Source: a virus
DNA: 43,923 nt
Direction: 5' to 3' (one strand)
Virus record (IMG/VR): IMGVR_UViG_3300002164_000001
Location: 1 to 43,923 of that record
Shown: positions 35,269 to 43,923 of the stretch, in pieces
Layout: every line of letters begins with the position of its first letter
Numbering within the stretch: the stretch's first letter is position 1
The notes under the pieces: model-generated
Seen by the model: only the letters and a program-made list of their open reading frames with translations
What the model was told of the DNA's origin: nothing
Databases searched by the model: none
Translations under genes and position numbers: made by a program

Positions 35269-37074
35269 ATGGCTGAATTTAAGCAGTTAATTATTACAAA
35301 TAAGGGGCAAGCATTAATGGCAAAAATGCTTGCAGGAACAGGTAATATTCAATTTACCAAAATCAGTGTATCTGATACAACATATACTGATGCACAACTT
35401 CCAGGATTAACTTCATTGTCAGGGGTAAAACAAAGTACCTTAATTAGTAAGGTAATAAGAACAAATGAAGTTGCAGTTCAGGTTGAAGGTGCAGTGACCA
35501 ATACTGATTTATCAAGTGGTTATTACATGAGAACAATCGGTCTTTATGCACTTGATCCTGATGATGGTGAAATTCTTTATGCAGTAACCAATGCAAGTCA
35601 GGCAGGATATATGCCCCCTTATAATGGAATTACTGTTTCAGGTGCTTTCTTCAAGCTTGTCACAACAGTTTCCAATGCTGACAATGTAACACTTGAAGTT
35701 GACCCTGCTGCAGTTGCAACTATTGGTGATATTCAAGACTTACAACAGCAAATTTCAGACCTTCAAGCTTTTGTTGGCTACACTGATGATGACATTGTTG
35801 GTGTTGAAGTGGACTTTAAGAATAGGAAATTTACAAGACTTGCAGGTGCAGTTAATAGAACACCAGGTGCAGGGTTTGATGATATAAAAGCATTTGGTGG
35901 AAGAAAAAGATGTATTTTAACAGATGATGGTGTTGTTTTAGCTTATCATGGTGAACCTGGATATACTGAAACAGGTGCTTTGACACAGGAAATTGTGATT
36001 GAACTTGAACCTGCAAAAGGTGAAGATCCTGCTGTTACTGAAACATATCCAGTTGGAACAAAGGTTCAAGTTATGGTTGAACAACCAAAGTTTTATTATA
36101 AAGTTGTACCATTACAACTTGAAAAAGTTGAAGGTGGTAAAGGCTTTCACATGAGAAAAGCAAGATATTATGTATCAGATACCATGAAAGTAGGTTTCAA
36201 ACTTCATCCTGCATTTATTCATAAGGGTGAAGAAAAGAATTTCATTTATTTATCAGCTTATGAAGGGTCAATATTTGACACATCAGCAGGTGTTCATTTA
36301 TTGACAGATGAACAAATTGCAGATTTTAATGAAGATAAGCTTTCATCAATTGCTTACGCAAAACCTGCAAGTGGTTTAACTCAAAACCTTACAAGATCTA
36401 ACACAAGAAAGCTTGCAAATAATCGTGGTACAGGTTGGGAACAAGCTTTTGCTGCAACAGTTGCAGCAACTCAATTATTATTTGCAATTGAATATGCTTC
36501 TTTTAATACACAAACCAAGATTGGAATGGGTAATGTAAGTAAAACTGATGATGGTTCAACATCCATGACTGAAATAACTGGTGCAACAACTCACCTTGGA
36601 AATCAATCAGGATCAGTTACAAATGAAAATGGAATAAATATTGTAACTTATCGTGGTGAAGAAAACTTTTGGGGTAACATTTGGAAATGGGTTGATGGAT
36701 TAAATATTGAAGCAAAAGGTCTTCATAATCTTTATGTTGCAAATGAAAACTTTACTGATGATATTGGAACTGAACCATATAAGGATGCAGGAATAACACT
36801 TGCAAAATCAAATGGTTATATTTCTGCTTTTGCATACAATGAAGAATTTGATTGGCTATTCTTCCCAAGTGAAACAAAAGGTGATTCAGCACTTCCAGTT
36901 GGTGACAATTTCTATCAAAACCATGATTATAACGGTTGGTTGGCGGCTTTCTTGGGTGGTTATTGGGCTTGTGGTTCTTATGCTGGTGGCTTCCTTTGGG
37001 GTGTGATTGATGTTTCTTCTTTTCGTTATCGTAATCGGGGTGGTCGCTTGGTGTATGTACCTGATGTAGCTTAA
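35269..37074 (+). CDS. Tail fibre / receptor-binding protein; DGR target with a C-terminal C-type-lectin/FGE-like variable domain
   Basis: Tail-collar-like N-terminus (LIITNKGQALMAKMLAG...IQFTKISVSD). The C-terminus YRGEENFWGNIWKWVDG...GGYWACGSYAGGFLWG...NRGGRLV contains the VR. Confidence 0.85.
   Translation: MAEFKQLIITNKGQALMAKMLAGTGNIQFTKISVSDTTYTDAQLPGLTSLSGVKQSTLISKVIRTNEVAVQVEGAVTNTDLSSGYYMRTIGLYALDPDDGEILYAVTNASQAGYMPPYNGITVSGAFFKLVTTVSNADNVTLEVDPAAVATIGDIQDLQQQISDLQAFVGYTDDDIVGVEVDFKNRKFTRLAGAVNRTPGAGFDDIKAFGGRKRCILTDDGVVLAYHGEPGYTETGALTQEIVIELEPAKGEDPAVTETYPVGTKVQVMVEQPKFYYKVVPLQLEKVEGGKGFHMRKARYYVSDTMKVGFKLHPAFIHKGEEKNFIYLSAYEGSIFDTSAGVHLLTDEQIADFNEDKLSSIAYAKPASGLTQNLTRSNTRKLANNRGTGWEQAFAATVAATQLLFAIEYASFNTQTKIGMGNVSKTDDGSTSMTEITGATTHLGNQSGSVTNENGINIVTYRGEENFWGNIWKWVDGLNIEAKGLHNLYVANENFTDDIGTEPYKDAGITLAKSNGYISAFAYNEEFDWLFFPSETKGDSALPVGDNFYQNHDYNGWLAAFLGGYWACGSYAGGFLWGVIDVSSFRYRNRGGRLVYVPDVA
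36933..37057 (+). repeat. DGR variable repeat (VR)
   Basis: Aligns without gaps to 37140-37264 at an offset of +207. By hand alignment there are 28 differences, all opposite template adenines. Confidence 0.9.
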
Positions 37075-37139
37075 TTTAAAGTTTATATATTCTTGGGCAA
37101 TCAATAACCTGATACACAATTAAAAGTTTAAGATAGTTT

Positions 37140-37264
37140 CAGTTGGTTAACAGCTATCTTGAGTGGTAATTGGAATAATGGTTCTAATACTGGTAGCTTC
37201 AATTGGAATGTGAATAATGTTTCTTCTAATCGTAATCGTAATCAGGGTGGTCACTTAGTAAATG
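37140..37264 (+). repeat. DGR template repeat (TR), non-coding
   Basis: Lies in the 330-bp gap between the fibre and RT genes. Read in the VR frame it gives ...NWNNGSNTGSFNWNVNNVSSNRNRNQGG..., with 11 AAT codons at diversified positions. Confidence 0.9.
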
Positions 37265-37404
37265 CATAAAAATTAAAATGTTAAGTATTGATTGCCCTAC
37301 CACTCGGTAAAACATAAAAATTAATTGAACTGTATTAGTAGACTTTGACTTATTCAAAGGTTGAAAGTTCGGTTTGATCGTGCATACAAAGGATGATGAC
37401 ATAA

Positions 37405-38472
37405 TTGAAAAGATACGGATATTTATATGAAAAAATTTATGACATGGACAATCTTATTCTTGCACACCACAATGCAAGAAAGGGAAAAGGATGGTATCAG
37501 GAAGTAAAAATGGTTGATGCAAATCCTGAATACTACCTGACCAAACTTCAAGAAATGTTGATCAATAAAACTTATCAAACTTCTGAATATGAAACATTCA
37601 TCAAGAAAGATAGTGGTAAGGAAAGGGAAATATTCAAGTTACCTTATTTCCCTGATAGAATTTGTCAGTGGGCAATTATGCAAGTAATTGAACCTTATTT
37701 ATTAAGGAATTTCACAAAAGACACTTATTCAGCAATACCAGGAAGGGGAATTCATCAATGTTTAAATAGATTAAAATATGCACTAAATCATGATGTTCCT
37801 GAAAGTCAGTATTGTTTGAAGTTAGATTGTAAAAAATTTTACCCATCAATTAACCATACAATTTTGAAAGAGAAATACAGAAGACTTTTCAAAGATGATG
37901 ACCTTCTTTGGTTACTTGATGAAATTATTGATTCAACACCTGGTGACACTGGAATTCCTATTGGTAATTATATTTCACAATATAGTGGGAACTTTTATCT
38001 ATCAGAATTTGACCACTGGATTAAGGAAGTTAAAAAGGTGAAGTATTATTTCAGATACATGGATGACATTGTTATCCTGGGAAGAAGTAAAGAAGAACTT
38101 CACCAATTAAAAAGAGAAATTGAAGAATATCTATGGGTAAAATTGAAGTTAAAAATTAAAGAAAATTGGCAGGTGTTCCCTACTTATGTTCGTGGAATAG
38201 ACTTTGTTGGATATAGGGTATTCATGAATTATTCATTACTTCGGAAATCCACTTGTAAACAATTTAAAAGAAAAATGACAGCACTTAATAAGAAAAGGAT
38301 TGAAGGAAAGCAATTGAATTATTCTGAATGGTGTTCCATTAATTCATACAAAGGTTGGTTGATCCATTGTAATAGTTATAGATTATCGGAAAAGTATATT
38401 AAACCTATTCAACAATTTGCAGATGATTATTACCTGCAAAATATTTATAAGAAAGGTGGAATTCAAACATGA
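37405..38472 (+). CDS. DGR-type reverse transcriptase
   Basis: GIPIGNYISQ (I/LGxxxSQ, the DGR-RT hallmark), YMDD (RYMDDIVILG) and motif A LKLDCKKFYPS. 355 aa, TTG start after aaaggatgatg. Confidence 0.9.
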   Translation: MKRYGYLYEKIYDMDNLILAHHNARKGKGWYQEVKMVDANPEYYLTKLQEMLINKTYQTSEYETFIKKDSGKEREIFKLPYFPDRICQWAIMQVIEPYLLRNFTKDTYSAIPGRGIHQCLNRLKYALNHDVPESQYCLKLDCKKFYPSINHTILKEKYRRLFKDDDLLWLLDEIIDSTPGDTGIPIGNYISQYSGNFYLSEFDHWIKEVKKVKYYFRYMDDIVILGRSKEELHQLKREIEEYLWVKLKLKIKENWQVFPTYVRGIDFVGYRVFMNYSLLRKSTCKQFKRKMTALNKKRIEGKQLNYSEWCSINSYKGWLIHCNSYRLSEKYIKPIQQFADDYYLQNIYKKGGIQT

Positions 38473-38723
38473 TTGATCATGGAAAAGTCAGAAGCACTGT
38501 TGCACCTGAACCAATGGTTGTTGATGAATTCAGTGTGTGGGTTCATTCCAATATCACACCAGTGGAAGAAGACAATGGTGAAGAAACTTTTGTTGGCTTT
38601 GAATATGACATGGTTCAGTATGACAAAGATGAATATATTAAAATTATAACTGAAAGAAGTAAAACTACAGAAATGACTTTGGACACACTTTTAACTGAAA
38701 TACTTCCAAGTCTAATGTTATAA
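38469..38723 (+). CDS. Small acidic tail-module protein (XkdW-position)
   Basis: 84 aa, 4-nt overlap with the RT stop. The sequence type (STVAPEP...FSVWVHSN...GFEYDMVQYDKDEY) is one I recall following fibre genes in Firmicutes phages. Confidence 0.55.
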   Translation: MIDHGKVRSTVAPEPMVVDEFSVWVHSNITPVEEDNGEETFVGFEYDMVQYDKDEYIKIITERSKTTEMTLDTLLTEILPSLML

Positions 38724-42645: not shown

Positions 42646-42915
42646 CTTGAACTTTTATGTCTATCTTGAACCCCTTGAAAGTATTGATTTCATGAGGTTT
42701 TCATTCATAATCGGTTCAAGGTTCAAGGTTGTTCTCTCTATATTCTTTATTTTTAGGGTATTATATTTTTATAATTTTTTTTTTATTATTTTAACTTAAT
42801 TACTTAATAACTTATAGTAATCTTGAACTTCTTGAACTGAACACAGTCAAACCCTTGTGGGATAACTCTTTCAATCGGTTCAAGGTATGTTAATCCATCT
42901 TGAACCATCTTGAAC
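42646..42915 (-). promoter_or_regulatory. GTTCAAG/CTTGAAC site array with an AT-rich core (copy A), upstream of the 42608 gene
   Basis: cttgaac at 42646, 42665, 42822, 42831, 42899 and 42909. gttcaag at 42713, 42720 and 42878. Site order and orientation match copy B when read on the opposite strand. Confidence 0.7.
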
Positions 42916-43341
42916 CATCACGTCTTGATCTATTCTTAATTGGATCAGTTCTTCATGAAATCCATAAATCATTGCAAGTTGACCAGTAGTTAATTCCTTA
43001 TATTCTTTCAAGTCTTCATCACTAATAAGTAAATTCACAGCAAATTTATTTGCTTCAATTTCAAGTTTATTGACTGATAAATAAGTCTTTTCCCTTAAAA
43101 AAGGGGTGTTTGACTTTGGGTGTAATAAAGCATGACCAAGTTCATGGGCAGCAGTGAATAATTTTTTATAATCAGGAAGGTTACAGTTGATATGGATGAA
43201 TTTTTGTCTAAATGCAGTGTTGTAATATCCATTGATACTTCCAAGATCTTCAAACAAAACAATAATTCCAAGATTATCAGCAATATCATAAGGATTTCTT
43301 GTCTTATGCTTTTTAATTAACTTTGAAATAATCTCCTTCAT
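42880..43341 (-). CDS. ImmA/IrrE-family metallopeptidase (same gene as 155..616, seen again through wrap-around)
   Basis: Identical 153-aa translation. Confidence 0.85.
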   Translation of the reverse strand: MKEIISKLIKKHKTRNPYDIADNLGIIVLFEDLGSINGYYNTAFRQKFIHINCNLPDYKKLFTAAHELGHALLHPKSNTPFLREKTYLSVNKLEIEANKFAVNLLISDEDLKEYKELTTGQLAMIYGFHEELIQLRIDQDVMVQDGSRWINIP

Positions 43342-43364
43342 ATCAATATACCCCCTCTTAAATG

Positions 43365-43817
43365 TTATTTCTTATACTTGTTTGGAGTATATTTCTTTGC
43401 AATCATCTTCCCCATCTTCAAACTATTCAAAAGACTTGCTTTCAAAAGTTCCCTCGTTTCATCATCTAAAATTTCACCATCAAACATTAAAGCTTCTTGA
43501 TTACTATCAAGTTGTTCCAATAAGAAATTCATTGTGGTAGCAATATCTTTTTTATCCCTATTTGAAAAATCTTCATATCTTTCAACATCCAATGCAAGTT
43601 TCTTTTCATCAGGAATACATCTGAACTTTGTTTTACCAAGTAACCAATCAACTGAAACATGAAAATAATCTGCAACCTTAGATAATTTATCAGTGCTTGG
43701 TGAACTTTTATTCCACTTGTATAATGTTCCCCTTCCAAAATCAAGTTCTGTTTCAAGTTTTGATACTGTTATATTTTTTTCTTCACATAACAACTGAATT
43801 TTTTCCAGTATGTTCAT
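43365..43817 (-). CDS. XRE/CI-like repressor (same gene as 640..1092, seen again through wrap-around)
   Basis: Identical 150-aa translation. Confidence 0.85.
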   Translation of the reverse strand: MNILEKIQLLCEEKNITVSKLETELDFGRGTLYKWNKSSPSTDKLSKVADYFHVSVDWLLGKTKFRCIPDEKKLALDVERYEDFSNRDKKDIATTMNFLLEQLDSNQEALMFDGEILDDETRELLKASLLNSLKMGKMIAKKYTPNKYKK

Positions 43818-43923
43818 AGCTTTGCCCTCCTTAAAAAATATTTCTGAAAATATTCAGCAAAAACTATTGACATACTGAATTAAATCAGTATAATATAATT
43901 ATAGCTGAAATAATTCAGCAAAT

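Follow-up and report, generated by a model that had tools for sequence, protein, structure and literature searches.

An apparently accessory-free diversity-generating retroelement behind the tail-fibre gene of a phage

The locus considered here raises the question of whether a repeat pair and a reverse transcriptase (RT) gene at the end of a phage tail-fibre gene constitute a diversity-generating retroelement (DGR), and of how such an element could work with no gene for the accessory protein Avd found beside it. It lies in viral DNA of 43,923 nucleotides (IMG/VR record IMGVR_UViG_3300002164_000001, positions 1 to 43,923), and this whole stretch is referred to as the window throughout. An earlier note, made from the letters alone, had proposed that a DGR rewrites the tip of the fibre by copying a non-coding template repeat (TR) into a variable repeat (VR) at the end of the fibre gene, with BPP-1 as the paradigm. 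The present analysis leaves little doubt that the element is a genuine DGR of the accessory-free type that diversifies the tail-fibre tip. All of the core DGR features checked here appear to be present, including adenine-only TR/VR differences, the RT signature, a VR within a lectin fold, distinct ends of the two repeats, and a flow of sequence from TR to VR. The evidence is set out below, followed by a model of the RNA.

The VR (36933-37057) and the TR (37140-37264) align over 125 nt without a gap at an offset of +207. They differ at 28 positions, each of them an adenine in the TR (A>G 16, A>T 10, A>C 2), and 8 of the 36 TR adenines are the same in the VR. This recomputed alignment agrees with the hand alignment of the earlier note in length, offset and counts. 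The first mismatch at a non-adenine TR position (37058/37265) lies directly past the 125-nt block. The probability that 28 of 28 mismatches fall by chance on 36 adenines among 125 positions is 4.7e-21 (hypergeometric), and the same pair was recovered independently by a repeat search of the window (family D1). An adenine-tolerant scan of the whole window on both strands revealed no second VR. Read in the frame of the fibre, the TR gives SWLTAILSGNWNNGSNTGSFNWNVNNVSSNRNRNQGGHLVN with 12 AAT codons, and both the AAT-rich template translation and the fibre translation quoted previously were reproduced. The TR adenines are mainly located at the first two codon positions (18, 14 and 4 at positions 1, 2 and 3), no TR codon can be turned into a stop codon by adenine mutation, and the 18 variable codons allow ~7e16 possible protein variants. 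The distance from the VR end to the fibre stop codon is 17 nt, VR and TR are separated by a gap of 82 nt, and the RT gene begins after a gap of 140 nt past the TR.

A family profile of 26 non-identical TR/VR pairs, anchored on the conserved TR end, revealed two kinds of adenine position. Opposite the TR adenines up to ~37244, all four bases occur in the VRs; the adenines at 37246, 37249, 37253, 37257 and 37260 always face G, and that at 37261 always faces T. Non-adenine substitutions at a comparable rate, which the earlier note had named as a sign against a DGR, were looked for and are essentially absent both in the window and in the 26 pairs. As judged from this profile, the last 20 nt behave as an initiation-of-mutagenic-homing sequence (IMH) in the VR against its counterpart (IMH*) in the TR, and the window mismatches at TR 37253, 37257, 37260 and 37261 are fixed differences of the IMH/IMH* type. 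Since 4 of the 28 mismatches are of this fixed type, 24 of the 31 mutable adenines are substituted in the window. The earlier statement that 28 of 36 adenines had been substituted thus holds as a count of mismatches and has to be lowered as a measure of mutagenesis. Window position 37050 (opposite TR 37257), within the otherwise fixed IMH-like end, reads G, A, T and G in four close relatives; given this variation, the junction between complementary DNA (cDNA) and VR may occasionally lie further 3' than usual.

The RT was also found as described before, with 355 aa, the motifs IGNYISQ and YMDD, and a start 140 bp past the TR. Its best PDB match is the RT of BPP-1 (bRT, 8ub7_A, E 1.3e-31, 113 bits), whereas group II intron RTs reach 60 bits and retron-type RTs 58 bits. 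In the alignment with bRT, IGNYISQ corresponds to IGSLTSQ, which fits the [I/L/V]GxxxSQ signature, and YMDD is intact. The closest RTs of GenBank phages are those of Psychrobacillus phage Perkons (59% identity) and crAss-like phages (~50%), and RT relatives were present in 170 phage records, including Bordetella, crAss-like, Bacteroides and Faecalibacterium phages. Relatives in Bacillota genomes were found in Clostridium, Acetobacterium, Enterococcus timonensis, Lachnospiraceae and 'Bacilli' metagenome-assembled genomes. Placement of the enzyme in the DGR clade is supported by these sequence comparisons. It could be supposed instead that this is the RT of some other system (retron, group II intron or Abi/DRT) and stands beside an ordinary duplication that has drifted. 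NCBIfam models for group II (TIGR04416, 114 bits), retron St85 (53 bits), Drt3a and Drt2 RTs do give matches, and relatives are called 'retron-type' in some database records. These matches are, however, sub-threshold and far below the cut-offs (300 bits for TIGR04416 and 235 for St85), and bRT leads the solved matches by 50 bits. Neither retron RNA nor group II intron RNA was detected in the window by Rfam, only RT-17. Drift, moreover, cannot put 28 of 28 differences on adenines, with the probability given above, nor repeat this in ~60 loci, and this explanation can practically be dismissed.

Whether the element has been active recently was addressed by comparison with its relatives. Among proteins that share 92-95% identity with the fibre, residues 300-555 do not vary, and the differences are confined to the last ~45 residues. 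At the DNA level, the window was compared with three relatives from other samples (L081, L082 and L083), the flanks of which are ~99% identical and the TRs of which equal that of the window apart from one G>A and one 6-nt deletion. The VRs of the four near-identical phages are all different; over the whole 125-nt VR, polymorphic columns make up 25 of the 36 opposite TR adenines and 2 of the 89 elsewhere (Fisher P=1.3e-15). One TAATCG unit is missing from both the TR and the VR of L081 (5620-6160, aligned, like the L083 segment below, to window 36880-37420), and this common 6-nt deletion is direct evidence of TR-to-VR copying. Among 80 loci retrieved through the RT, ~60 had enough upstream DNA, and these show the same order of VR, TR and RT, adenine-only mismatches and a VR-TR spacing of ~170-260 nt. 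A 3-nt in-frame insertion in the VR of L083 (5594-6180; GGGAAC for TAA) is not found in its TR and could result from RT slippage or from later mutation.

Recent activity, as proposed in the earlier note, is supported by these sequence differences, with relatives of near-identical TR carrying different VRs at the TR-adenine sites. Two points speak against it: the argument rests on differences between assemblies, and an identical VR variant recurs on 6 contigs. The latter would suit a fossil DGR, in which the sequence is intact, homing has ceased in the lineage and the VR differences stem from older events, and the relatives without an RT or with RT remnants described below likewise show decay of the cassette. 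Against such a fossil stand the intact RT ORF, catalytic motifs, TR and both RNA helices, and also the completely different VRs between ~99% identical flanks and TRs, and the TR deletion propagated to a VR. A fossil element is therefore regarded as improbable.

The target of the element is a 601-aa tail fibre, which matches phrog_5302 'tail protein' over its full length (E 1.8e-168); its named relatives are from Jeotgalibaca and Streptococcus parasuis. Pfam, NCBIfam and PDB sequence searches with the fibre C-terminus gave no match to C-type-lectin, FGE or DUF1566, so sequence profiles are blind to this fold and it was resolved by structure prediction only. The AlphaFold2 model of residues 190-601, based on an alignment of 62 sequences, has a pLDDT of 81 and a pTM of 0.86. 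The top PDB match of this model in Foldseek was TaqVP (5vf4, E 1.8e-9, probability 1.0, TM 0.45-0.50), followed by Mtd (1yu0-1yu4, E 3e-3 to 3e-2), TvpA (2y3c) and then FGE. The comparison with Mtd, TvpA and FGE folds suggested earlier thus gave matches to all three. The predicted structure supports a C-type-lectin-fold receptor-binding domain that carries the VR at the fibre C-terminus. Taken together with the adenine-only mismatches, the bRT match and the VRs that vary over a conserved TR, this model upholds the DGR reading of the earlier note.

The transfer of the BPP-1 paradigm to the architecture of the element did not hold. No window ORF of at least 60 aa matched PF05635 or PF22296 in a small-ORF scan, in which the positive control from the distant locus L079 matched bAvd at 6e-5. 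The VR-TR and TR-RT gaps leave no room for an avd gene. An Avd-binding stem-loop was described just downstream of the TR in Avd-dependent DGRs (Handa et al.), and here the TR is followed after only 21 nt by the 3' arm of the helix that brackets it (see below), so that there is no room for this stem-loop either. As far as can be judged from the sequence, no Avd takes part.

In 50 of 63 loci, the RT is followed by an acidic 84-aa ORF. Neither this ORF nor the 56-aa ORF after it has a Pfam match at E <= 0.01 or an NCBIfam match, and nothing was found for the 84-aa ORF by tblastn against GenBank phages. It was considered as a CH1-like DGR accessory and rejected, as it also follows RT-less fibre genes and CH1 proteins are of 160-169 aa. 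In the RT-less relatives L137-L139, L143, L156, L167, L168 and L171, the 84-aa gene comes directly after the fibre gene, TR and RT both being absent, and this order argues for a tail-module gene and not a DGR accessory. C-terminal RT remnants of 24-58 aa were found in L113, L120, L125 and L146. From these arrangements, the TR-RT cassette appears to have been repeatedly gained or lost between the fibre gene and the 84-aa ORF.

Other ORFs were observed between VR and TR in two relatives. The 261-aa ORF of L079 (1428-2213), the RT of which is 31% identical, has a weak MutS_I match and a C-terminal bAvd-like match and may represent an accessory gene of the MSL-Avd fusion type. The 97-aa ORF of L068 (162-455; RT 50% identical) has no Pfam or PHROGs match and could be an accessory gene or a spurious ORF.

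The absence of a recognizable accessory gene can be explained in another way, namely that the DGR is not self-sufficient and needs an accessory protein, either a highly divergent Avd-like factor encoded elsewhere in the phage or a host protein, while in all other respects it works as BPP-1 does. Avd is essential for cDNA synthesis in BPP-1 (Wu et al., 2018; Handa et al.), and many small ORFs without assigned function are present in the window. However, no ORF fits next to the TR or the RT, the ORF after the RT is acidic and also follows RT-less fibre genes, the interval between TR and 3' arm is too short for the Avd-binding stem-loop, and no avd was found elsewhere in the genomes of Avd-less DGRs (Wu et al., 2018). 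Such a dependence on an accessory protein is considered unlikely, though it has to be kept in view.

If no accessory protein positions the template, the RNA itself may do so, and the spacer between TR and RT was found to contain an RNA of the Rfam family RT-17 (RF03020), which is in the same place in 12 of 19 diverse related loci. The two long-range helices described next were judged by covariation, with slid partners and 500 shuffles as controls. On a structure-blind MAFFT alignment of 39 loci, the helix that brackets the TR, a perfect 12-nt inverted repeat, was paired in 77.9% of cells as against 30-46% for slid partners; 10 of its 12 pairs changed on both sides, and none of the 500 shuffles reached the observed value. 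The 4-bp hairpin that abuts it was paired in 98.7% of cells, with compensatory changes in 3 of 4 pairs. A second helix, formed between the TR end and the 3' tail of RT-17 (helix 2), was paired in 87.4% of cells as against 8-52% for slid partners, with a covariation score of 0.266 (controls <=0.119; 0/500 shuffles), and was fully compensated in L040, L056 and L060 and also compensated in Perkons. Independent genome loci and phage Perkons likewise have both helices, formed there by other sequences. The two helices cross, forming a pseudoknot, and the G-U pairs in both indicate an RNA of the + strand. By analogy with the TR:Sp duplex of BPP-1, helix 2 is probably the template:primer duplex, in which case A37261, the last A-type difference, would be the first templated base.

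A separate promoter or terminator for the TR RNA was sought in the window, and nothing above background was found. In six relatives (L036, L037, L039, L041, L043 and L045), an extra G+C-rich hairpin with a U-run (e.g. CACCCCG...CGGGGUGUUUUU) lies between the TR and the bracket helix. It is terminator-like, occupies the site of the Avd-binding stem-loop of BPP-1, and is not present in the window. Three copies of AATTWAAAKKTTA(AG) were considered as elements and rejected, as by eye they are not conserved in related loci; the first (37073-37085) follows the fibre stop codon, the second (37118-37132) immediately precedes the TR, and the third (37271-37285) immediately precedes the bracket helix 3' arm. 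They are probably chance matches in A+T-rich DNA.

Based on these structures, the following mechanism is proposed. Transcription of the late operon would run on past the fibre gene into TR and spacer, and the RNA of ~37095-37390 would fold such that the 12-bp helix brackets the TR and is followed by the hairpin and A-run, as in the 'cPRT Stop' of BPP-1. The TR 3' end would pair with the RT-17 tail, probably as template:primer duplex, and the RT would copy the TR from ~37261 back towards the bracket helix, misincorporating opposite adenines. The cDNA would then replace the VR, the position of the junction being determined by the 20 G+C-rich, IMH-like nt, and the ~7e16 stop-free fibre tips could allow the phage to retarget its receptor binding. 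On the most far-reaching reading, the element would be a two-component DGR, consisting of the 355-aa RT and a ~300-nt pseudoknotted RNA that is permuted relative to that of BPP-1, with the RNA architecture replacing Avd in template positioning. This two-component reading is put forward tentatively, as a possibility that is rated somewhat above a dependence on an accessory protein and still falls short of being probable.

Several observations count against the explanation of the locus as an accessory-free DGR, or against parts of the mechanism. Avd proteins are poorly conserved, so that a divergent or host-supplied accessory factor is possible. TR 37260 is a synonymous third-codon position and nevertheless faces a fixed G in the VRs, from which it would follow that cDNA there is not transferred or that synthesis starts further 5'. 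A nested alternative, in which TR UCAC at 37251-37254 pairs with the segment just 5' of the 3' arm, reached 3/1000 in an alignment-free permutation test and was not significant in the column-based alignment test; as a BPP-1-like primer duplex, this pairing is weakly supported. Neither a hairpin nor a cruciform follows the VR: folded as DNA, 37036-37110 reaches -0.8 kcal/mol, which is weaker than its shuffles, and 37075-37094 contains only three overlapping A+T palindromes of 6-11 nt and no stem-loop. The coordinates of the features are collected in Table 1.

Table 1. Features of the retroelement and of adjoining genes, in window coordinates.
Feature	Position	Strand	Basis or remark
Tail fibre, 601 aa, target gene	35269..37074	+	PF12571 tail-collar domain at residues 6-149; C-terminal domain of predicted C-type-lectin fold with VR
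VR, mutagenised part	36933..37037	+	24 A-type mismatches to TR; codons of the last ~45 residues, which differ between otherwise identical fibres
IMH-like VR 3' end GGGTGGTCGCTTGGTGTATG, G+C-rich	37038..37057	+	Fixed differences from TR in 26 family pairs
Bracket helix, 5' arm GGGCAAUCAAUA	37095..37106	+	Starts 21 nt past the fibre stop codon; perfect 12-nt inverted repeat with 37286-37297
TR, mutable part, non-coding	37140..37244	+	Alignment to VR; 31 adenines, 12 AAT codons in fibre frame
IMH*-like TR 3' end GGGTGGTCACTTAGTAAATG	37245..37264	+	Family-wide fixed A-versus-G/T differences from VR
TR-end strand of helix 2, AUGCAU	37262..37267	+	Straddles the end of TR/VR homology; pairs with 37380-37385
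Bracket helix, 3' arm UAUUGAUUGCCC	37286..37297	+	Pairs with 37095-37106
RT-17 RNA (Rfam RF03020)	37293..37389	+	66.2 bits against gathering score 40.4; model positions 1-95 of 95
4-bp hairpin with tetraloop (UACC ACUC GGUA), then A-run AAAAC	37298..37313	+	Abuts bracket helix; RT-17 consensus structure
RT-17 3' tail strand of helix 2, GUGCAU	37380..37385	+	Followed by conserved ACAAA; RT start codon 20 nt downstream
DGR reverse transcriptase, 355 aa, TTG start, IGNYISQ and YMDD	37405..38472	+	RVT_1 E 7.7e-21; phrog_1423 E 2e-133
Acidic ORF, 84 aa, isoelectric point (pI) 4.2	38469-38723		ATGA overlap with RT stop codon; only match phrog_18126 (unknown function)
ORF, 56 aa	38742-38912		After the 84-aa ORF

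The surroundings of the element are those of a phage genome. An exact 1198-bp direct repeat, containing ImmA-like and repressor-like genes, is located at the window ends (1-1198 and 42726-43923), which indicates a circularly permuted or over-assembled genome with a unit of 42,725 bp. The window has a G+C content of 30-35%, and no relevant tRNAs or tandem repeats were found in it. Head genes (terminase, SPP1-type portal, scaffold and major head protein), tail genes (sheath, tube, XkdN-type chaperone (TAC) and tape measure) and, before the fibre, baseplate genes (LysM, YQBQ, DUF2577, sheath initiator, baseplate J and gp48-like) were identified. Two small ORFs, holin-like ORFs and an amidase-SPOR lysin follow past the retroelement, and an integrase and the ImmA/repressor pair are on the opposite strand. 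This gene content points to a temperate contractile-tailed phage, and the sequence indicates a low-GC Bacillota host. The cassette had been placed within a PBSX-like XkdV-XkdW-XkdX block; the upstream genes are indeed PBSX-like, XkdW and XkdX were assigned by position only, and the 84-aa and 56-aa ORFs in their places have no Pfam or NCBIfam match.

A tail-fibre DGR in a Firmicutes phage is an expected finding, and its accessory-free architecture is a known one. Clades of viral DGRs directed at tail proteins of Firmicutes phages were catalogued at scale, in the thousands (Roux, 2021; Wu, 2018). The added value of the locus is modest and lies in a testable RNA model, since the mechanism of Avd-less DGRs, which account for ~29% of curated DGRs, appears unstudied. 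The family offers a compact cassette of ~1.4 kb (TR, RT-17 and RT), clear signs of recent activity and a two-helix RNA model backed by covariation. If the two-component reading is true, the cassette would be the smallest module for targeted hypermutation in nature, and Avd-independent retrohoming would have a tractable model. A repertoire of ~10^16-10^17 receptor-binding tips from a temperate phage of a low-GC Gram-positive host also bears on host-range prediction and phage use.

In comparison with the BPP-1 DGR (mtd-avd-TR-brt), the element shares the diversification of a lectin-fold tail-fibre tip at its C-terminus, the adenine-only mismatches, a TR built on AAY codons, and a G+C-rich IMH-like VR end with fixed IMH/IMH* differences. 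Sequence-level similarity between the fibre and Mtd was not detected in the PDB sequence search. Unlike BPP-1, it has no avd, no room for an Avd-binding stem-loop, and no hairpin or cruciform past the VR; work by Guo and co-workers from 2011 is said to place such a structure just downstream of the IMH in BPP-1-type DGRs. The spacer RNA resembles that of BPP-1 in that it pairs with a segment upstream of the TR, continues with a short hairpin and adenosines, and pairs a second time with the 3' end of the TR. The 'cPRT Stop' of BPP-1 consists of a duplex between upstream segment and spacer, a short stem-loop and A-minor adenosines, and its conservation was examined in Avd-containing DGRs only (Handa et al.). 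The same layout is seen here as the 12-bp helix with its covariation, the 4-bp hairpin and AAAAC. The spacer belongs to RT-17 here and to RT-10 in BPP-1. Here the TR-pairing strand is located 3' of the bracket strand, giving a pseudoknot, whereas in BPP-1 the two strands are adjacent and nested.

The gene order of target gene, TR and RT, without avd, HRDC, MSL or CH1, corresponds to Architecture A of Wu et al. (2018) and is also that of their avd-less Lineage 3, of which the present RT is a possible member; Lineage 3a is from Bacteroides, whereas this RT clade is from Bacillota. Architecture A accounts for 29% of 372 curated DGRs, and Avd-independent retrohoming was proposed for it (Wu et al., 2018, NAR 46:11); among the open-access papers searched, the term 'Avd-independent' is used only in that study. 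The best structural match, TaqVP of Thermus aquaticus, is likewise a DGR variable protein of C-type-lectin fold, but it has only 14-15% sequence identity to the fibre, in which the domain is fused to the N-terminus of a phage tail-collar fibre. Phage Perkons has the same arrangement of a target, a 381-nt gap without annotated gene and an RT, and keeps both helices; Perkons and the crAss-like phages differ in their backbones, and their targets are 30-37% identical in the C-terminal domain. The description of RT-17 goes no further than 'near RT genes', and RT-10 alone was linked to a DGR (Weinberg et al., 2017). With the spacer as a full-length member of RT-17 (66 bits), this orphan Rfam motif would gain a role in a DGR, and its 'unpaired' flanks would be accounted for, the 5' flank pairing with the sequence that precedes the TR and the 3' flank with the 3' end of the TR.

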